In this document: one piece after another, positions 9,422 through 62,930 of the stretch
How the letters are laid out: every line of letters begins with the position of its first letter
How positions within the stretch are numbered: the first letter of the stretch is position 1
Sequence record: MK327940.1
DNA: 64,000 bases
Strand: one strand, 5' to 3'
Source: Escherichia phage vB_EcoM_G29
The notes under the pieces: generated by a model
Seen by the model: the letters and a program-made list of their open reading frames with translations, nothing else
Told to the model about the DNA's origin: nothing
Database searches by the model: none
Position numbers and translations under genes: made by a program

Positions 9422-10705
9422 ATGGCTAAAATCAACGAACTTCTGCGCGAATCAACCACAACGAATAGCAACTCAATCGGTCGCCCAAATCTCGTTGCTT
9501 TGACTCGCGCTACCACTAAATTAATATATTCTGACATTGTAGCAACGCAAAGAACTAATCAACCTGTTGCTGCTTTTTATGGTATCAAATACCTTAACCC
9601 GGATAACGAATTTACATTTAAAACTGGTGCTACTTACGCCGGCGAAGCTGGATATGTAGACCGAGAACAAATCACAGAATTAACAGAAGAGTCTAAATTA
9701 ACTCTCAATAAGGGCGATTTATTCAAATATAATAATATCGTTTATAAAGTATTAGAAGATACACCATTTGCTGATATTGAAGAAAGCGATTTAGAATTAG
9801 CTCTTCAGATTGCAATTGTTCTTTTAAAGGTTCGTCTATTTTCTGACGCAGCGTCAACAAGCAAATTTGAAAGCTCTGATAGTGAAATTGCGGATGCTAG
9901 ATTCCAGATTAATAAATGGCAAACCGCAGTTAAATCTCGTAAACTTAAAACTGGTATCACAGTTGAATTAGCACAAGATTTAGAAGCAAATGGATTCGAT
10001 GCTCCTAATTTCTTGGAAGATTTGCTTGCAACCGAAATGGCAGATGAAATCAATAAAGATATTCTGCAGTCTTTGATTACAGTGTCAAAACGCTATAAAG
10101 TTACAGGAATTACTGATACTGGATTCATCGATTTGAGTTATGCATCTGCACCTGAAGCTGGTCGTTCATTATACCGAATGGTATGTGAAATGGTTTCACA
10201 TATCCAGAAAGAATCAACTTATACAGCAACGTTCTGTGTTGCTTCAGCTCGTGCCGCTGCGATTCTTGCTGCATCAGGTTGGTTAAAACATAAACCAGAA
10301 GATGACAAATATCTTTCACAAAATGCCTACGGGTTCTTAGCTAATGGTTTACCGCTTTATTGCGATACCAACAGCCCATTAGATTATGTAATCGTTGGCG
10401 TAGTAGAAAATATCGGTGAAAAAGAAATTGTTGGATCAATTTTCTATGCTCCGTATACAGAAGGTCTTGACTTAGATGACCCTGAACATGTAGGTGCATT
10501 TAAAGTTGTAGTTGATCCAGAAAGTTTGCAGCCATCTATCGGTTTATTAGTTAGATATGCTTTATCTGCAAATCCTTACACTGTAGCAAAAGATGAAAAA
10601 GAAGCAAGAGTAATTGATGGTGGAGACATGGATAAAATGGCGGGTCGTTCAGATTTGTCTGTTTTATTAGGTGTTAAGCTACCAAAAATTATCATTGATG
10701 AATAA
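9422..10705 (+). CDS. 24: capsid vertex protein gp24 (427 aa)
   Basis: 427-aa ORF, gp23 paralog position and length as in T4. Confidence 0.95.
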   Translation: MAKINELLRESTTTNSNSIGRPNLVALTRATTKLIYSDIVATQRTNQPVAAFYGIKYLNPDNEFTFKTGATYAGEAGYVDREQITELTEESKLTLNKGDLFKYNNIVYKVLEDTPFADIEESDLELALQIAIVLLKVRLFSDAASTSKFESSDSEIADARFQINKWQTAVKSRKLKTGITVELAQDLEANGFDAPNFLEDLLATEMADEINKDILQSLITVSKRYKVTGITDTGFIDLSYASAPEAGRSLYRMVCEMVSHIQKESTYTATFCVASARAAAILAASGWLKHKPEDDKYLSQNAYGFLANGLPLYCDTNSPLDYVIVGVVENIGEKEIVGSIFYAPYTEGLDLDDPEHVGAFKVVVDPESLQPSIGLLVRYALSANPYTVAKDEKEARVIDGGDMDKMAGRSDLSVLLGVKLPKIIIDE

Positions 10706-10710
10706 AACAA

Positions 10711-10735
10711 AGGGACCTTTCGGTCCCTTTTTATT
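10711..10735. terminator. bidirectional intrinsic terminator between gene 24 and rnlB
   Basis: agggacc-tttc-ggtccct flanked by A-run upstream and T-run downstream. Confidence 0.7.
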
Positions 10736-11739
10736 TAACTTACCAATTCAATCCAAGCCGGACGAAGTACATCTTGTACCATTTTAACTAATTCCTTCTT
10801 AATCAAAGAAGGATTATCCGCTTGAGTTAGAGTAATACCTTCACGAGAAGTTTCTTCCAAAATATCTTGAACCGTTAGTCCCATCACCTTTCCAAAATCT
10901 TTTGGACCAATTTCACCAATTTTAGAAATAACGTTATTTACTCGGTTCAGTGTAACATAACAAGCTAAAATTCCCAGCAATTTATTATCAGCTTCTGACA
11001 ACTCAACTTTAGCTTTAATAGGCTTATCAGACTTTTTCTTTTCACTAAATTTAGAGTTCTTGCATTTGATGGCTACACGATTGCGATTAGGCAGCCAAGA
11101 AGGATAACAAGGTTTCAATACATATCCTTCAGCGGTAAATACTTCGCCTTTTGCTTCAGCATTCCAAACGCATTTATTTGCATCAACTAATCCAGCATGG
11201 TCTACCGTAAAATTATAATCCTGTACGACAGAATCTAAATCATTTGGCAATTTAATAAGTTCTTCAAATTTACCACGACCTAAAAGTGGAGCCATTTTAA
11301 ATTTAAATGTATTACAGAATGATTCCATCATATAATCATCGACATAAATTACATCACCACTTTCTGTAGTAACAATAATGTCAAATACATAAAAATCTTT
11401 ATCACCATAATCGACATTCTTCTGAATGCCAGGTCCGGCGAATTCACCAAAGACTTGATAAGATACAACCGCTGAAGTTTCCATAATATCTTGTACTGCT
11501 TTAATGGAATCAGCGTAATTCTTCAAAATAATTTCATACCCAAAGAAATCTTCAGCAGGAAGAATAGGACCAGTTCGTTTAGCACAAGTTACTTTATCAC
11601 GCTCAATAATCAATGAGAAATTTGTGCCGTGAATCTTTTCACGAGCTACCCATTCGCCGCCAGTCAATCCTAAACTGTAAAGTTTTTCAATAAATTTAGA
11701 GTTGTAATGATTTTCAAGACTGCTATACTTTTTAAACAT
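10735..11739 (-). CDS. rnlB: RNA ligase 2 (334 aa)
   Basis: 334-aa ORF immediately downstream of gene 24 on opposite strand, as T4 rnlB (24.1). Confidence 0.85.
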
Positions 11740-16044: not shown

Positions 16045-16058
16045 GGGCTTCGGCCCTT
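16043..16058 (+). other. UUCG-tetraloop hairpin between uvsW and uvsW.1
   Basis: aagggc-ttcg-gccctt overlapping the uvsW stop; no long U-tract. Confidence 0.45.
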
Positions 16059-16069
16059 TGGAGAAAAAG

Positions 16070-16300
16070 ATGTTACTAGAATTTAAACAATTTCTTTATG
16101 AAGCTTCTATTGATGAATTTATGGGTAAAATTGCCTCTTGTCAAACATTAGAAGGTTTAGAAGAACTTGAAGCTTATTATAAGAAAAGAGTTAAAGAAAC
16201 TGAATTAAAAGATACTGATGACATCTCAGTCAGAGATGCTTTGGCAGGAAAAAGAGCTGAATTAGAAGATTCAGACGATGAAGTAGAAGAAAGCTTTTAA
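16070..16300 (+). CDS. uvsW.1: UvsW.1 small protein (76 aa)
   Basis: Track ORF starts at TTG 16058; ATG at 16070 with GGAG 6 nt upstream gives 76 aa as in T4. Confidence 0.8.
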   Translation: MLLEFKQFLYEASIDEFMGKIASCQTLEGLEELEAYYKKRVKETELKDTDDISVRDALAGKRAELEDSDDEVEESF

Positions 16301-23605: not shown

Positions 23606-24570
23606 TGTATTCTTTAGAGGAATTTAATAATCAAGCAATAAACGCAGATTTCCAACGTAATAATATGTTCAGCTGTGTTTTTGCTACAACTCCATCAACT
23701 AAAAGCTCTTCGTTGATAAGTTCAATTAGCAACTTTTCTTATAATAACTTGGGCCTAAATTCAGATTGGTTAGGATTAACTCAAGGCGATATTAATCAGG
23801 GAATTACTACGCTAATTACAGCTGGCACACAAAAACTGATAAGAAAATCAGGGGTTAGTAAATATCTTATTGGTGCCATGAGTCAACGTACAGTTCAAAG
23901 TTTATTAGGCTCATTTACAGTTGGTACATATTTAATTGACTTCTTTAACATGGCATATAACTCATCTGGATTGATGATATACTCTGTAAAAATGCCAGAG
24001 AATAGATTATCCTATGAAACTGACTGGAACTATAATTCTCCTAATATTCGTATAACTGGGAGAGAATTAGACCCTTTGGTTATTTCATTCAGAATGGATT
24101 CAGAAGCTTGTAACTATCGTGCAATGCAAGACTGGGTTAACGCTGTTCAAGACCCAGTAACTGGATTGCGTGCTTTGCCGCAAGATGTCGAGGCTGATAT
24201 TCAGGTTAATCTTCATTCTCGCAATGGATTACCACATACTGCGGTGATGTTCACTGGATGCATTCCAGTGTCCGTAAGCGCTCCTGAGTTATCATATGAT
24301 GGAGATAACCAAATAACTACATTTGATGTTACTTTTGCGTATAGAGTCATGCAGGCTGGAGCAGTTGATAGACAAGCTGCGCTTGAATGGCTTGAATCTG
24401 CTGCTATAAATGGTATTCAAAGCGTTCTCGGAAATAGTGGAGGTGTCACTGGACTATCTAATTCGCTTTCACGACTTAGTAGATTAGGGGGAACTGCAGG
24501 AAGCATTTCAAATATTAACACTATGACAGGAATTGTCAATTCGCAAAGTAAAATATTAGGAGCAATATAA
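23605..24570 (+). CDS. 54: baseplate tail-tube initiator gp54 (321 aa)
   Basis: 321-aa ORF overlapping gp48 stop; T4 gp54 length. Confidence 0.9.
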   Translation: MYSLEEFNNQAINADFQRNNMFSCVFATTPSTKSSSLISSISNFSYNNLGLNSDWLGLTQGDINQGITTLITAGTQKLIRKSGVSKYLIGAMSQRTVQSLLGSFTVGTYLIDFFNMAYNSSGLMIYSVKMPENRLSYETDWNYNSPNIRITGRELDPLVISFRMDSEACNYRAMQDWVNAVQDPVTGLRALPQDVEADIQVNLHSRNGLPHTAVMFTGCIPVSVSAPELSYDGDNQITTFDVTFAYRVMQAGAVDRQAALEWLESAAINGIQSVLGNSGGVTGLSNSLSRLSRLGGTAGSISNINTMTGIVNSQSKILGAI

Positions 24571-24574
24571 CAAT

Positions 24575-24600
24575 GGGGACCTTTCGGTCCCCATATTTTT
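24575..24600. terminator. bidirectional intrinsic terminator between gene 54 and alt.-3-position ORF
   Basis: ggggacc-tttc-ggtcccc followed by atattttt. Confidence 0.7.
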
Positions 24601-24889
24601 ATTTACGGAATGAAATGAAAGCAGCAACTGAAGCAACTAAACTGTCTTCAATATAAACTTCAATTTTTACCGGAGCTTCTGACTCAAATTTACCTGTTAC
24701 TACACCCTGAAAAATACTTTCAGTCTGTTCTGGCTTTGAAAAATTTTCAGAAGGAAAAATTCCGAACTTTTTATCTGTTCCAAAAATTTTGATAAATTCA
24801 TCGTAAACTGCTTCATTAAAAGCATTATCAGCAGGAATAACGCCTTCAACTACAAGTTCTTGACCTAAAAAGCGCAAAGAAGATTTCAT
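24599..24889 (-). CDS. hypothetical protein, 96 aa (positional equivalent of T4 alt.-3)
   Basis: ORF with own early promoter, bracketed by hairpin terminator. Confidence 0.65.
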   Translation of the reverse strand: MKSSLRFLGQELVVEGVIPADNAFNEAVYDEFIKIFGTDKKFGIFPSENFSKPEQTESIFQGVVTGKFESEAPVKIEVYIEDSLVASVAAFISFRK

Positions 24890-24896
24890 TTTGTGT

Positions 24897-24950
24897 TCCT
24901 CATGTTATGTCAGTAAGACTACTATAACACAACACGAGGGACTTGTAAAC
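24897..24950. repeat. 54-bp dispersed repeat copy 1 (early promoter plus leader); copy 2 at 40821-40874
   Basis: 53 of 54 nt identical (tcctcatgttatgtcagtaagactact[a/g]taacacaacacgagggacttgtaaac). Confidence 0.9.
24921..24950 (-). promoter_or_regulatory. early promoter (GTTTAC-N18-TATAGT) for the alt.-3-position ORF
   Basis: Minus strand GTTTAC overlapping the stop of the Alt paralog, TATAGT 18 nt downstream, leader with GAGG before ATG. Confidence 0.6.
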
Positions 24951-27007
24951 TACATCTTGAACTTTTTAGACATTCCGTTGATGTTAACCAAAGAAGCTAA
25001 GATTTGAGAAACTTCGTTTTCCTCTTCTTTTGATTCTTCTACAAGGAATTGATTAAATCCAGCCATTGGACGAACTTCACCAGTTTCCATTAGATGGTCG
25101 CCATCATATACTGATTCTTCTAATTGTTCAGAAGGAGGAACGATTGTACCTTCGATTAGATACTTGTTATAAGCAGTTTCTTTCATAAAGTAAGTACTTA
25201 CTTTATTAATCTTCAGTAAAATTCCACGTGGTAGAATAACTTCAGCTTCTGACGGAAATCCTGATAAATGACCCGGAACGATAACTTTGATTCGCTCAGC
25301 TCCTTTAATTACCATACCCACGCTAGTTTCAGCATCTTCATTAGCATATGTAGAATGACTACCCATATGCATCAAATCTTCTGCATCAACGGAACCTTCT
25401 CCTTCACCAGAAAATACTGCGCCGGAATCATCTAGAGCCATATAGTTTTTACCATGCTCACCGAAGATATTTGGTTTAAGCGATGTGGATACGAAGTTCT
25501 TGAAATAGAACATTTTATTTTCAATGTTATGACGCAAAGTTTTAAAGGTAACTTCTTGTCCACGGTAAAGTGTAGTTCCTGGAGGAAGAACTGAACCTTT
25601 AGCGAATGCAGAATCAAGCGTCTCAATATGTTTAATAGCTCGTTCCATATATTCTTCACGGGTAGAATCTGGTTTACCCAAAAGGAACGAGTTCATTTCA
25701 ACATATGAATCTGCACAATAATCTTCAATTACATCAGATTCAGCTTGAGTTAATCCTTTTGGAGTTACTTCAGTGCTTGCGTATTCATATGCCTGAGCAG
25801 CAGATTCATTAATCAATTTATAAATGCCATTCATGACAAATTGAATAATAGCTGTCTTTTCATCTGGCGTAGCTTTAGAACCTTTAACCAAATCATTGAT
25901 AATTTTCTTAATAACATCAAAGCTATTAGAAATATTAATATCAGCAAGATCGCTTAAAATTTTATCAGTCTTATAATCAAAGAATTCTTTATTCTTTAAA
26001 TATTCTTGAGAACCTTGATATGTTATATCGCTCTGTAACTTGATAGATGGATCACGTAAACGTGCATGGGCTAATGCAATATGATTTCGGAAGCTTTCGA
26101 GTTCATAATCACTAGATTTAAAACGAGAAGCGCTTCTCATACCGCCTATAGCTCCTTTGCTGAAGTTTGAACCAATTTGAATAACGCCAGAGTTCATTGG
26201 TCCTTCTGCTTTATACACCGGAACTTTAGATTCAAACTCTTGATATTTCTTAGCAGCGAAGCTATCACCCTGAAGTGAAGCATCAACAGTAGAATATTGA
26301 GCTTGTGCTGCTAATCGACGACTAATTTTAGTTTTCTGAATAACAGCTTGGTCCGTGCGCTTATCATTTTCTAAAGCAATAGAAGCAGCAACAGCAACAG
26401 CTTTAGGAACAGCATTACCTGTTTTAACATCTACATAAACATCACCAACCTTTGATTCAACTTTTGTGAATAACTCAGTTGAAATAGGAGGTACACCTGG
26501 AATGTCTTCTAAATTGGCATTTTTACGATAAACCATAATATATGCGTACTTTTTATCATAATCCCAGATTTCCTTTAAAAGAACATATCGACCTGCTCCT
26601 TTAGTACGTACTAAACGGTCAGCAATAACTTGCATTTGACGAGCAGCGCCATTTGTTTTACTCTTTAGTACGCGGAATAAGCATGCATCAATTTTATACT
26701 GTTTCATTGTTTGAAGAGCAGTATCAAAAACAGCGTTAATGACGCCAATTGGATTTCCACCCAAGTTTCTAAGTTTAACCAGTGATAATTTCTCGTTGAC
26801 ACCTATCATTACGATATGCATCATTTTATCGCCCGGCTTAACGTTTTTATTTGTATCACCTCCAGAGGTGTATGTACAAAATCTAAATCCAGGAAGCACG
26901 CTTTCTTCGCCGGCTTGAATAGCAAAAATTTGAGGTATTTTATGCTTAGGATTTAAGTTAACAACCGGCGCCGAAGCGCCGTCAAATAATTCTGTAATAA
27001 GTTCCAT
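24950..27007 (-). CDS. Alt-like ADP-ribosyltransferase paralog (685 aa)
   Basis: Shares the alt N-terminus (MELITELFD...CTYTSGGDTN...KIDAC...GRYVLLKE.WDYDKKYAY) and R / S-T-S / E-x-E ART motifs (LYRGQ, FVSTSL, SEAEVILPRG); central region divergent. Confidence 0.85.
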   Translation of the reverse strand: MELITELFDGASAPVVNLNPKHKIPQIFAIQAGEESVLPGFRFCTYTSGGDTNKNVKPGDKMMHIVMIGVNEKLSLVKLRNLGGNPIGVINAVFDTALQTMKQYKIDACLFRVLKSKTNGAARQMQVIADRLVRTKGAGRYVLLKEIWDYDKKYAYIMVYRKNANLEDIPGVPPISTELFTKVESKVGDVYVDVKTGNAVPKAVAVAASIALENDKRTDQAVIQKTKISRRLAAQAQYSTVDASLQGDSFAAKKYQEFESKVPVYKAEGPMNSGVIQIGSNFSKGAIGGMRSASRFKSSDYELESFRNHIALAHARLRDPSIKLQSDITYQGSQEYLKNKEFFDYKTDKILSDLADINISNSFDVIKKIINDLVKGSKATPDEKTAIIQFVMNGIYKLINESAAQAYEYASTEVTPKGLTQAESDVIEDYCADSYVEMNSFLLGKPDSTREEYMERAIKHIETLDSAFAKGSVLPPGTTLYRGQEVTFKTLRHNIENKMFYFKNFVSTSLKPNIFGEHGKNYMALDDSGAVFSGEGEGSVDAEDLMHMGSHSTYANEDAETSVGMVIKGAERIKVIVPGHLSGFPSEAEVILPRGILLKINKVSTYFMKETAYNKYLIEGTIVPPSEQLEESVYDGDHLMETGEVRPMAGFNQFLVEESKEEENEVSQILASLVNINGMSKKFKM

Positions 27008-27010
27008 GAT

Positions 27011-29062
27011 TTATCCTTGAACGAACTTGTAAGGCATGTTTGTAATATCTATGCAAGACGCAATAATTCCAAGAGATGATTCTACTTTCTGTTTAACATT
27101 TGATGAAACAAATGATGCAAAGTCAACTCTATCTTCTATATCACCTGTCATTGTAACTACTTCGCCGGTTTCCATTAAACGGTCACCGTCATAAATTACT
27201 GATTCGGTGAGTTCTTCGGTGGTCATAACTTCAGCTTGAATAAGCTTGTTGTTAGTTTTGACTGTTCCATCATTGTAAGATGCATCAGTTATTTTATTAA
27301 CTTTGACCATTAATCCACGTGGCAAAATGACTTCCATTTCATTTGAAGGCGCTAAACTTCCACCGGGTAAAACAACATTGACTTTATCAGCCCCAGTAAT
27401 AACCCATCCAATTCCGACTAAATTATCGCTAGAATTAACAAGCCCTTCATCATTTTTATCGATAGAAATGTTTAGACGCTTTTCATCTGGTAAAACACCA
27501 ACAGCTGAATCAGTCATCCAAGTACCAAAAATGTTTGGATATAATGATGTTGATACAAAATTTCTAAAATAAAAAACTCGATTTTTTACCATTGCTTCGT
27601 ATATTGAAGGTAACATTCGTTGTGAACGATACAAAGTAATACCTTTTGGTAATCGTTCACCATTTTTAAAGGCTGAATCTAAATTATCAATAGCTTTTTC
27701 TATGTCAGATGCTGTCAAAATACTTGTACGCTCATCTGGATTATATAATCCCAAAAGAGCATTATTTATGTCTACATATCCTGAACCTACGTATTCACGA
27801 ATTCCGCGTTTTTGTGCTGGTGTGTATTTAGATGAATCTTTATTTTCGACTATAGGATGTAATGACCATCCAGCTGTAAGAGCATATCCACGTAATTCTC
27901 TTCGAATAATCTTTGTTTTTATTGCATTCCAAGAATTTTGTACTAACTCATTTGCAGCATCTTGGTTTAAATGCGAATGTTTGTTAATATTTCTTTCAAA
28001 CCAAGCACCTTTATATTTTTCTAAAGTATTATCGACGATAGAAGCAATAGTTTCTAAAGTTTTTATTGAAGTAATAGATTCTTTTCGTAATTTTTCTAAA
28101 GCTTTATTTTTTATTTCTGCATTAATAATGGATTCTTTATCTTCAGGAATTATAGAAGCTTCTCTGAATGCCATCCCAGCTGTAACACTGCTAAGAGCAT
28201 TCTCTAGTGCAAATCCTGAAGTAGAAATTACCGTTAATTCATTAGAATCAGAAATTAAAGGCGCATCAGCGGGTTTATTTAATTCTGCTGCTGAAGCCTC
28301 AAATTTTTGAAACATCGGTGTTTCAAATCTAGAAGATTCCAATGACTGACTTTGTGCAATTGCTCTACGGGAAATTTTAACTTTAACGATTACAGCTTGG
28401 TCAGAACGTTTATCATTTTCTTGTGCAATAGATGCTGCAATTGCCTCATTTTTGGTTACTTGAGCTCCGGTATCTTTATTGATATAAACATCACCGACCT
28501 TCGATTCAACTTTAGTAAAGAGCTCGGTACTAATTTCCGGAACTCCTGGAATGTCTTCTAGTGATACATTTTTGCGATGTATAAGAATATATGCATACTT
28601 TTTATCATAATCCCAGAGTTCCTTAAGAAGGACGTATCTGCCACCTGAACGACTACGGATAAGTCTATCAGCAATAACTTGAATTTGTCGAGCTTGATCA
28701 GCGGTTTTAGACTTAAGAATACGAAGCATACAAGCATCAATTTTATACTGACGCATTGTTTGCATTGCAACAGTAAAAACTGAATTGATATAATTAATTG
28801 GGCTTGGACCAAGACCTTTTAATTTAGCAATTGAACCTTTAGCGGTTAATGTAAAAGGAACAATATGCATCATTTTATCGCCCATTTTTAAATCGCGATT
28901 AGTATCACCTCCAGATGTATAGGTACATAAACGAAAGCCTGGTTGTTCAATTGCATCATCAACATGAACTGAAAAAATTTGCGGTATTTTCTTCTTTGGA
29001 TTTAAGTTTGTAATCGGAAGAGTAGTATCTTCGTCAAATAATTCTGTAATAAGTTCCATCAT
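27011..29062 (-). CDS. alt: Alt ADP-ribosyltransferase, head-packaged (683 aa)
   Basis: 683-aa ORF adjacent to gene 30 as in T4; ART motifs LYRSQ, FVSTSL, NEMEVILPRG; late TATAAATA upstream. Confidence 0.9.
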   Translation of the reverse strand: MMELITELFDEDTTLPITNLNPKKKIPQIFSVHVDDAIEQPGFRLCTYTSGGDTNRDLKMGDKMMHIVPFTLTAKGSIAKLKGLGPSPINYINSVFTVAMQTMRQYKIDACMLRILKSKTADQARQIQVIADRLIRSRSGGRYVLLKELWDYDKKYAYILIHRKNVSLEDIPGVPEISTELFTKVESKVGDVYINKDTGAQVTKNEAIAASIAQENDKRSDQAVIVKVKISRRAIAQSQSLESSRFETPMFQKFEASAAELNKPADAPLISDSNELTVISTSGFALENALSSVTAGMAFREASIIPEDKESIINAEIKNKALEKLRKESITSIKTLETIASIVDNTLEKYKGAWFERNINKHSHLNQDAANELVQNSWNAIKTKIIRRELRGYALTAGWSLHPIVENKDSSKYTPAQKRGIREYVGSGYVDINNALLGLYNPDERTSILTASDIEKAIDNLDSAFKNGERLPKGITLYRSQRMLPSIYEAMVKNRVFYFRNFVSTSLYPNIFGTWMTDSAVGVLPDEKRLNISIDKNDEGLVNSSDNLVGIGWVITGADKVNVVLPGGSLAPSNEMEVILPRGLMVKVNKITDASYNDGTVKTNNKLIQAEVMTTEELTESVIYDGDRLMETGEVVTMTGDIEDRVDFASFVSSNVKQKVESSLGIIASCIDITNMPYKFVQG

Positions 29063-29082: not shown

Positions 29083-29090
29083 TATTTATA
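29083..29090 (-). promoter_or_regulatory. late promoter TATAAATA for alt
   Basis: Minus-strand TATAAATA about 21 nt upstream of alt ATG. Confidence 0.55.
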
Positions 29091-39969: not shown

Positions 39970-40319
39970 TTAGAAAGGTCCTGGATGTCTTCTGCGAACT
40001 TGTTGAAGGAGTTGTTGATTTGTTTTTCAACCAATCCTGGCTTATGAGCCACCACATCCGCCTTCTTTGCGTCTTTGCGCAGCTTTTCATTTTCACGCTC
40101 AATAGCAGCAATCGCCTCACGATTTTTATTATTCATCGCATCAATATAATTATACTGAATTCGCAAATTATTTAATGCTAAGGCGTTTTCATTGGCCGTT
40201 TTTGTAATTTCTACAACAGACGTTTCTAATCTTTCTACCTTATTTTTTAAAATAATAGATGTTCCGCCAAATGCTATTACAAGTAATAGCAATCCAGCTG
40301 TAAAATTACTTACATGCAT
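39966..40319 (-). CDS. i-spanin-like protein, 117 aa
   Basis: N-terminal transmembrane helix (GLLLLVIAFGGTSIIL) followed by charged coiled-coil-like region; adjacent to lipoprotein partner. Confidence 0.7.
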   Translation of the reverse strand: MHVSNFTAGLLLLVIAFGGTSIILKNKVERLETSVVEITKTANENALALNNLRIQYNYIDAMNNKNREAIAAIERENEKLRKDAKKADVVAHKPGLVEKQINNSFNKFAEDIQDLSK

Positions 40320-40816
40320 AAAGTTTTAATAACCTCTATAATATCGTCTTGAGAAAGACCGTTAATTAAAATATGATGTTCAGCTGGAGATTTAGAAATT
40401 TTAAAGCATGCCGCAACATCTTCTGCCATATCCGATGCGCTACGATTTGGATTACTAATTCCAAGACGATGTTTTCCCGTCAAAGGATTAACGATGATGT
40501 AGCATTTGCAATTATTGATATGAACATTAGGTTGAGTCTGATTAATAAACACTTCACAATCATATTTCGCAAGCTGATTTTCTAAAAAGACTTTCATCTC
40601 CTCAACCGCATCAGGAAGCATATCACGGGCTTGCTCAAGACGACGATTTCGATATTCTTTAATGGTCGTTTTCCGCTTGACTTGCTTAGCTAAATCTTTC
40701 TTAAGATCGGTGATATATCCAACTCGACGGTTTCCTTTAAATACAGAAATCCCATCTGTAGTATCACCGTATGCTTCAACGACCATTTCAGTAGTAATGA
40801 GCTGCAAATCCATCAT
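40310..40816 (-). CDS. alc: Alc, inhibitor of host transcription elongation on cytosine DNA (167-168 aa)
   Basis: ORF of T4 alc length between spanin ORFs and rnlA; early promoter upstream. Confidence 0.8.
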   Translation of the reverse strand: MMDLQLITTEMVVEAYGDTTDGISVFKGNRRVGYITDLKKDLAKQVKRKTTIKEYRNRRLEQARDMLPDAVEEMKVFLENQLAKYDCEVFINQTQPNVHINNCKCYIIVNPLTGKHRLGISNPNRSASDMAEDVAACFKISKSPAEHHILINGLSQDDIIEVIKTLCM

Positions 40817-40844
40817 AAAGTCCTCATGTTATGTCAGTAAGACT

Positions 40845-40874
40845 ACTGTAACACAACACGAGGGACTTGTAAAC
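40845..40874 (-). promoter_or_regulatory. early promoter (GTTTAC-N18-TACAGT) for alc
   Basis: 53/54-nt match to the promoter-leader at 24897-24950; GAGG before alc ATG. Confidence 0.55.
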
Positions 40875-40877
40875 AGC

Positions 40878-42465
<1,588 letters not shown>

Positions 42466-62102: not shown

Positions 62103-62120
62103 AGGGGCTTTGCCCCTTTG
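62103..62120 (+). other. hairpin between genes 37 and 38
   Basis: aggggc-tttg-cccctt directly before the gene 38 RBS. Confidence 0.45.
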
Positions 62121-62129
62121 GAGAAAATT

Positions 62130-62930
62130 ATGGCAGTAGTTGGTGTTCCCGGTTGGATTGGAAGTTCATCCGTAAATGAAACAGGACAACGATGGATGAG
62201 TCAAGCAGCTGGTCAATTAAGATTGGGTGTTCCTTGCTGGATGAGCCAATTCGCCGGACGCTCAAGAGAGATTATTCATACTGTAAGTGCTAATCATAAT
62301 TTTAATGGTCAGTGGTTCCGTGATAGATGCTTTGAAGCTGGCGGTGCACCCATTGTATTCAATATTGTTGGTGATATCGTTTCTTATTCTAAAGATGTGC
62401 CACTTTTCTTTATGTATGGGGATACGCCTAATGAATATGTTGTTCTTAATATTCATGGTGGTGTTCATATGTGGGGTCGTGGTGGTAATGGTGGATACAC
62501 TCACTCAGGAGGCGACGGTAACGGTACACAAGGCGGTCATGTTATTCAAAATGATATCGGTGGACGGCTTCGTATTTGGAACTACGGTGTTATAGCTGCT
62601 GGTGGTGGCGGTGGTGGTGGTATTGCATATCGTCCACACTCAGGGGCAAACTGGCAAGATATCGGTGGCGGTGGTGGTCGACCTTTCGGTGGCGCTGGCG
62701 GCGGCGGTTATTCCGGTGGTGCTGCTTCGTATGAAGGTCCGGGTGGTGGTTATGACTATGGTAACGCACACTCCGGCGCTGGTGGTAATGCTGGTGCTTC
62801 TGGTCAGAATGCATGGTCTGACGGCGGTAAAGTTCTTAAAGTTGGTGTTGGTGGTGCGTCTGGTCATGCAGTGTTTGGATCTTCTCCAACTTGGGGTGCT
62901 GTTGGAACAATTTACGGACCAAGAGTATAA
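62130..62930 (+). CDS. 38: T2-type receptor-recognising adhesin gp38 (266 aa)
   Basis: Track start TTG 62118; ATG at 62130 with GGAG upstream; glycine-rich motifs (GGGGGGG, GGGGG, GGAGGGG) separated by variable segments. Confidence 0.85.

Follow-up and report, generated by a model that had tools for sequence, protein, structure and literature searches.

The closest described counterparts of the locus examined here are the promoter-early stem-loops (PeSLs; Arbiol et al. 2010, PMC2839356; Comeau et al. 2014, PMC4122927), in which a stop codon, an early sigma-70 promoter, a stem-loop, an SD and an ATG follow one another. The stem-loops lie most often between the -35 and -10 elements or overlap the -10 (PMC2839356), and the promoter consensus given for T4/PST in the two papers is TTTACW-N17-TAYWAT (PMC2839356, PMC4122927). 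A second relevant group comprises the hairpins of the T4 genes e, soc, 49 and I-TevI (Uzan and Miller 2010, PMC3014915). Here the SD is held in a helix in a long RNA, and a promoter inside the 5'-arm region gives a shorter mRNA that can be translated.

In the window analysed here, a 64,000-nucleotide stretch of phage DNA, two 54-bp cassettes match the published PeSL class. Each consists of an early promoter, a stable stem-loop and an SD with start codon between two genes, and the layout from stop codon to ATG is that of the PeSLs. The stem overlaps the -10 and contains G-T pairs, and the copies, like those of PeSLs, appear to recombine with each other, in this case by conversion and not by shuffling. 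They differ from PeSLs in lying 16 kb apart and flanking essential genes, such that exchange would survive only as conversion and not in the form of shuffled genes or an excised mini-circle. A further difference is that the SD belongs to the 3' arm of the stem, and the stem spans the -10, whereas the PST/T4 stem-loops of the 2014 paper lie just upstream of the promoter (PMC4122927).

With the e, soc, 49 and I-TevI hairpins the cassettes share an SD that would be sequestered in long RNA and a promoter that gives a shorter message. The timing is reversed, however. Those genes have a silent early RNA and an internal promoter of the late (or middle) class, whereas the cassettes have an early internal promoter, and it would be late or middle read-through that stays silent. 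Neither of the downstream genes, alc and alt.-3, appears in the published list of structure-gated T4 genes (PMC3014915). The explanation that we favour, with a confidence modestly above even, is that the cassettes are promoters set within hairpins that gate the SD in read-through RNA, that conversion has kept the two copies alike, and that the alc site was the source.

A pair of near-identical cassettes in Tequatrovirus

Cassette A (24897-24950, minus strand) carries an early promoter, a hairpin repeat and an SD upstream of the alt.-3 homologue. Its counterpart upstream of alc, cassette B (40821-40874, minus strand), has one mismatch to it, and the 53 of 54 identical nucleotides of the original prediction were recovered. 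So was the single difference, which falls at position 3 of the -10 hexamer (TATAGT in A, TACAGT in B). No comparable match arose in dinucleotide shuffles (0/100), and the search that had been proposed for further copies, run over the whole window at up to 20 mismatches, returned no third one. The identity has abrupt edges, starting with the G of GTTTAC and ending with GAGGA, and the flanks are unrelated.

Among the window's nine early promoters of the GTTTAC type, the median pairwise identity without gaps is 25/54, and the runner-up pair reaches only 39/54; with gaps allowed, the identity of the cassette pair is 0.98 against 0.75 for the next best pair. Because the other early promoters reach 39/54 at most, the likeness of A and B lies far beyond promoter consensus, as had been claimed. 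Genome-wide, the many equally similar copies that would make the cassette simply an early-promoter consensus do not exist, since there are two copies per genome. That the match is merely the T4 early-promoter consensus seen twice is a reading with one point in its favour, namely that both copies hold every consensus element. It is refuted by the values of at most 39/54 (median 25/54) for the other early promoters, by the lack of a third copy in the window and by a count of just two per genome over 499 genomes, and we assign it virtually no probability.

The window belongs to Tequatrovirus, the T4 genus, and 501 nt of it are 100% identical to vB_EcoM_G4498 and others. A search of phage records with the 54-mer returned 997 places in 499 records, or two per genome, including T4, T6, RB33 and PP01. 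As alc itself was found at ≥95% identity in about 496 records, the pair is present in essentially the whole genus. The recent duplication that had been suggested therefore finds no support: with some 499 relatives carrying exactly two copies, the pair is old within the genus. In T4 the alc copy is exactly site A of the window, while the alt.-3 copy has one other position changed relative to the window (CTGAC to CTAAC).

The cassette sequence was not found in print in the literature searched, and a promoter feature is absent at either site from the T4 GenBank records and from the DksA paper. Public annotations elsewhere are in conflict, as the Lutter record marks a promoter (the first 30 nt) and the SA20RB record (OL960581.1, 602-651) gives cassette A as a rho-independent terminator (WebGeSTer).

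Flanking genes and putative sources of read-through

The cassettes were described as lying directly upstream of minus-strand genes, and this is the case. Cassette A serves the alt.-3 homologue of 96 amino acids (24599-24889, minus strand), and cassette B serves alc (40310-40816, minus strand), the inhibitor of host transcription, for which the T4 annotation starts at the second ATG, at 40813. The accompanying claim that each cassette overlaps the stop codon of the preceding gene was correct at site A, where the last base of the TAG is shared (ORF end 24950), but not at site B, where the rnlA TAA ends at 40878 and lies 3 nt upstream of the cassette.

Upstream of cassette A is a second alt-like gene, encoding an ADP-ribosyltransferase of 685 amino acids (24950-27007, minus strand), which is the proposed source of read-through. 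It follows alt (27011-29062, minus strand), a late gene (PMC9697503). The ORF of rnlA (gene 63; 40878-42038, minus strand) lies upstream of cassette B, and its true start is probably at 42002, judging by the T4 length of 1125 nt. PeSLs are described from hyperplastic regions, beside indels that distinguish related phages. Site A adjoins a variable gene, as the second alt gene is full length here and decayed to alt.-1/alt.-2 in T4; site B sits between the conserved genes rnlA and alc.

A motif scan placed a T4 late-promoter motif, TATAAATA, 20 nt upstream of alt (29083-29090, minus strand). Such motifs occur 18 times in the window against 9.2 expected, consistent with T4 late promoters. A bidirectional terminator-like hairpin (24573-24594) closes the alt.-3 transcription unit, and no terminator-like site ahead of it was reported in the scan around cassette A, which covered 24400-25300. 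Given the late motif upstream and the lack of a terminator-like site in the scanned stretch, late alt transcripts should cross cassette A. At site B, read-through would come from long early/middle transcripts that originate in the nrd-denA-rnlA cluster. T4 omics data class alc and alt.-3 as early for both RNA and protein, and the rnlA protein and alt as late (PMC9697503 and supplements).

The two full-length alt-like genes stand in tandem on the minus strand (24950-27007 and 27011-29062). The first 31 nt of their 5' ends are 97% identical (26980-27010 and 29032-29062; N-terminus MELITELFD), and the following 158 nt only 72% (26811-26968 and 28860-29017). The shared N-terminus may serve as a signal for packaging or processing, or may reflect a further tract of conversion.

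Promoter elements

The GTTTAC, the 18-nt gap to the -10, the -10 hexamer and the GAGG of the original prediction were all confirmed at both sites. By the sigma-70 convention the spacing reads TTTACA-17-TATAGT at site A and TTTACA-17-TACAGT at site B, with TGT just before the -10, and promoter scoring gave 10/12 matches at site A and 9/12 at site B with an extended -10 TG at both. In the promoter scan the -35 hexamer TTTACA of site A lies at 24944-24949, overlapping the T4-type GTTTAC at 24945-24950, and the -10 hexamer TATAGT, preceded by its TGT, at 24921-24926. The corresponding elements of site B are TTTACA at 40868-40873 and TACAGT at 40845-40850, also with TGT before it; all are on the minus strand. 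From the position of the -10, transcription is predicted to start at 24914 (minus strand; base A, 7 nt past the -10, about cassette position 37) and at the equivalent base of site B, 40838 (minus strand). Upstream of the -35 is AAAAATTATAAAAAATTTAT at site B and alt-like coding sequence, less A/T-rich, at site A.

Judged by these elements, both cassettes are standard T4 early (sigma-70) promoters followed by the SD GAGG. They resemble the catalogued T4 early promoters (Pe; PMC2988021) in the GTTTAC -35, the 17-bp spacer, the TGn, the TAnnnT -10 and the early downstream genes and, at site B, perhaps in an A/T-rich upstream region. Within that catalogue they would be ordinary members, the sole oddity being that two members are near-identical across spacer and leader.

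A hairpin predicted to form only in read-through RNA

Each cassette is an imperfect inverted repeat, in which positions 12-25 (CCTCGTGTTGTGTT, in the spacer) pair with positions 40-53 (GACATAACATGAGG, in the leader and SD), with an inner stem of 4-5 bp and a GUCU loop beside the -10. At site A the 5' arm, CCUCGUGUUGUGUU (24926-24939, minus strand), comes from the promoter spacer and contains the anti-SD CCUC; the 3' arm, GACAUAACAUGAGG (24898-24911, minus strand), comes from the leader and contains the SD GAGG at 24898-24901. The arms of site B lie at 40850-40863 and 40822-40835 (minus strand), the latter with GAGG at 40822-40825 inside it.

The 81-nt read-through RNA is predicted to fold with -26.2 kcal/mol (z -4.7) at site A and -28.7 kcal/mol (z -5.0) at site B, about -23 to -29 kcal/mol overall, and none of 200 shuffles folded as well. 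As the spacer is complementary to the leader, this RNA folds and buries the SD in the model: the predicted probability that GAGG is unpaired in the longer transcript is 0.00-0.01, and opening the region from the SD to AUG+2 would cost 14.0-15.6 kcal/mol (A) or 16.2-16.3 kcal/mol (B). The 5' arm occupies cassette positions 12-25 and the -10 positions 25-30, and the short transcript from the predicted start is without the 5' arm. Its leader folds with 0 (A) or -1.4 kcal/mol (B) and is predicted to be unstructured, with opening energies over the same region of only 2.1 (A) and 3.5 kcal/mol (B). In the site A transcript the SD pairs weakly with the coding region (probability unpaired 0.13), at a cost of about 2 kcal/mol to open. 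A structured leader in the promoter's own transcript was rejected on these folds. The conserved leader RNA element that had been offered as one explanation of the identity thus survives in altered form, as the own leader is predicted unstructured but an inverted repeat of spacer against leader and SD is present and can fold in read-through RNA only.

A shared AUG in the leader (in CAUGAGGA) opens a uORF of 4-5 codons at both sites (MRNTK*, 24887-24912, and MRTL*, 40811-40836, minus strand). Its UGA overlaps the main start (AUGA) in each case, although the sequences past GAGGA differ. This uORF lacks an SD and could be a coincidence.

Variation within the genus was compared with the stem. Fifteen Tequatrovirus haplotypes contain one compensatory pair, 15-50, which passes from CG through UG to UA; the covariation test within the genus was not significant (122/500 shuffles reach the observed score), and 5 of the 11 stem variants break a pair. 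A metagenome scan for site B haplotypes gave five loci with two new variants, both of which preserve pairing; the IMG/VR scan gave four genomes only. With the Rfam 15 covariance models, nothing in the cassette came close to a gathering score.

A hairpin in this position might instead be a transcription attenuator or terminator, as has been proposed for the stem-loops of PeSLs. It would stop or dampen read-through from rnlA or alt and leave alc and alt.-3 to be transcribed from their own promoters alone, the SD pairing being incidental. The stem is long and stable, one RB49 PeSL stem-loop terminated strongly in a lacZ reporter (PMC2839356), and a terminator is what WebGeSTer predicted for cassette A in SA20RB. 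However, the stem is not followed by a T-run (the sequences after it read AACACAAAATG and CTTTATGATGG), nor did the scan for terminators report either site, so that an intrinsic terminator was rejected. Moreover, pairing of anti-SD and SD at alc recurs in five other genera, as described below, and would be needless for a pure terminator. We regard attenuation as unlikely, though its probability is not negligible.

The shared sequence could also bind a protein of phage or host as an operator, or be a regulatory RNA site in the own leader, and alc and alt.-3 would then be co-regulated through it. The identity does extend over non-consensus spacer and leader, and the DNA around the start site forms a dyad (TGTTAT-N15-ATAACA), but variants fall within this dyad. 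The unstructured own leader and the lack of an Rfam match speak against an RNA site, the spacers are not common to both sites in the other genera examined, and the RegB GGAG site is absent from the cassette. Read by eye, the RegA SELEX consensus AAAAUUGUUAUGUAA has no apparent counterpart in the leader. We know of no candidate regulator for the cassette, and consider this form of co-regulation very improbable.

Under the explanation that we prefer, gating of the SD by the hairpin, polymerase from the cassette promoter would start close to position 37, at the base of the 3' arm. The resulting mRNA would have a short, unstructured leader with GAGG free, and alc or alt.-3 could be translated as soon as infection has begun. 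Transcripts that read in from upstream, which would be late alt RNA at site A and longer early/middle RNA through rnlA at site B, would carry both arms. In these, CCUCGUGUUGUGUU would pair with GACAUAACAUGAGG, the SD would be buried and the downstream gene would be poorly translated. Translational gating of alc and alt.-3 is, at this stage, a prediction of the folding models, and it is plausible that such early-only translation is a further instance of the mechanism known from T4.

If the model is right, Alc, the host-transcription shutoff factor, and Alt.-3 would be made only from their own early transcripts despite later read-through, and both genes would join the list of structure-gated T4 genes. 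The mechanism of e, soc, 49 and I-TevI would be extended to early promoters, with a temporal logic reversed relative to that of the T4 lysozyme hairpin. The cassette would also be a compact natural part, combining a promoter with an anti-SD insulator, that might prove useful to phage engineers. None of this would alter the broad view of how T4 regulates its genes.

Hairpins at alc in other genera and at other early promoters

Comparable hairpins were identified upstream of alc outside Tequatrovirus. In Karamvirus the arms TCTCCATTTGGTT and AACCAAATGGAGA fold with -26.4 kcal/mol (z -5.8), and Moonvirus has the Karamvirus arms (-24.7 kcal/mol, z -6.9). Jiaodavirus pairs ATCCTCGTCAG with CTGATGAGGAT (-21.3 kcal/mol, z -4.0), Dhakavirus forms a 9-bp stem from TCTCCTCAT and ATGAGGAGA, and Marfavirus has a weak TCCTTG/CAAGGA stem (-10.1 kcal/mol). 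The SD lies within the stem in all of these, giving five genera besides Tequatrovirus in which spacer and SD pair at alc, with differing sequences. The 13-bp stem of Tegunavirus (-23.3 kcal/mol, z -6.1) ends 2 nt before the SD, which is therefore outside it. The alc regions of Mosigvirus, Gualtarvirus and Mosugukvirus have no such hairpin, from which it follows that it is dispensable in some lineages. Upstream of alt.-3, a comparable hairpin was found in none of Mosigvirus, Karamvirus, Jiaodavirus and Tegunavirus (z -2.3 to +0.5).

Spacer-leader duplexes were calculated for 38 early promoters of nine phages, and spacers paired with their own leaders at -12.0 kcal/mol versus -7.3 kcal/mol for cross pairings (p ~1e-5, with orthologues that are not independent). 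Spacer-leader complementarity is thus a general feature across the 38 promoters. One of the Karamvirus promoters, at about 9930-9994 (minus strand) of KaAlpha upstream of KAALPHA_248, has a spacer (ATCCTCCGTTGTAT) complementary to leader and SD (ATACAACGGAGAA; -22.2 kcal/mol), so SD-sequestering promoter hairpins are not confined to alc. Inverted repeats that bracket the -10 also occur at four other minus-strand early promoters of the window, designated here by the position of GTTTAC: 37571 (GGTAGAG..CTCTACC), 33486 (GGTACAGG..CCTGTACC), 49353 (GGGTA..TACCC) and 53370 (AGATTT..AAATCT). Their 3' arms all stop upstream of the SD.

These comparisons bear on the suggestion that the pair is a historical copy with occasional conversion, in which the inverted repeat has no function and the cassette is just a strong promoter with an SD. 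Consistent with this, cassette diversity is as high as that of the flanks (see below), within-genus covariation is not significant and several genera are without the alc hairpin. On the other hand, a stem of 14+4 bp with z of about -5 is unlikely to arise by chance, other genera build an equivalent spacer-SD stem from different sequences, and self exceeds cross complementarity over 38 promoters (p ~1e-5). A functionless repeat is, in our view, a decidedly unlikely account, slightly more so than attenuation.

Probable exchange between the copies and direction of copying

Returning to the favoured explanation, in which conversion keeps the gating hairpins alike, both sites were taken from 12 Tequatrovirus genomes picked for cassette variation. 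Within these genomes A and B are identical at 49-54 of 54 positions, no position carries a fixed difference between them, and the reference haplotype is found at both sites. The derived alleles 16A, 27C, 29A, 32A and 34T are common to A and B, as is 15T once the metagenome loci are added, and all five transitions at B are among the 11 seen at A in the 12 genomes (hypergeometric P = 1.5e-4). In PP01 the linked derived pair 29A+32A is present at both sites and A equals B at 54/54; in P8 the same haplotype is present at A only. Nucleotide diversity (pi) in the cassette is 0.033-0.056, an overestimate owing to the choice of genomes for cassette variation, and is no lower than in the flanking coding DNA (0.024-0.041). 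Since cassette diversity is not below that of the flanks, the identity goes beyond what purifying selection alone would maintain.

Gene conversion, which the original prediction had offered as one alternative, is supported by the six shared derived alleles, the absence of fixed differences and the PP01 double variant at both sites. This pattern of polymorphism indicates recurrent ectopic gene conversion between the sites, rather than strong purifying selection, and such conversion over 54 bp of homology would uphold the near-identity of the copies. A length of 54 bp is close to the shortest homology at which T4 is reported to recombine (Singer et al. 1982, cited in PMC2839356). A reciprocal crossover between the two direct repeats would remove ligase, gene 31 and others from the 16 kb between them, and presumably only conversions would survive. 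Shared polymorphisms, the lack of fixed paralogue differences and identical derived haplotypes in one genome are also the marks of concerted evolution in dispersed short repeats, although the tract here is only 54 bp; the pair would be a clean, small case of that process near the minimum homology length for T4 recombination. The combination of hairpin and exchange would explain how two promoters 16 kb apart come to be identical beyond consensus, the spacer and leader being hairpin arms and the copies exchanging sequence.

The direction of copying was considered from promoter architecture. Six genera have an anti-SD motif right after the -35 of alc, and Tequatrovirus alone has one at alt.-3; the spacers of the two genes are unrelated to each other in Karamvirus, Jiaodavirus and Tegunavirus. 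Mosigvirus has its closest promoter pair in alc and alt.-3, yet these agree at only 39/54, and a third promoter has their leader too. By this architecture the alc site is probably the original, the alt.-3 promoter having been overwritten by the alc cassette in the Tequatrovirus ancestor. Identity to outgroup promoters was uninformative as to the donor (36-43/54 for alc versus 35-40/54 for alt.-3). A broader reading, to which we would give slightly less than an even chance, is that the cassette is a portable early-only module that insulates the downstream gene from late or middle read-through; alc would be its ancestral site, where at least five other genera have this architecture in a different sequence, and it would have been copied to alt.-3 in the Tequatrovirus ancestor, with ongoing 54-bp conversion keeping the two copies identical since then.

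Shared segments were also seen at other sites. Three early promoters of the Mosigvirus moha, at 9830, 17942 and 31276, have the leader ATCAACAACA(T/C)GAGGA in common and different spacers, which suggests that leader segments have been exchanged among Mosigvirus cassettes too. In the window, terminator-like hairpins with the same core recur at distant sites, at 10712-10758 and 24576-24622 and again at 16045-16079 and 62105-62139; the recurring cores are GGGACCTTTCGGTCCC and, in the other case, GGGCTTCGGCCC followed by TTTGGAGAAAA. Shared terminator and RBS modules of this kind could be further points of exchange.
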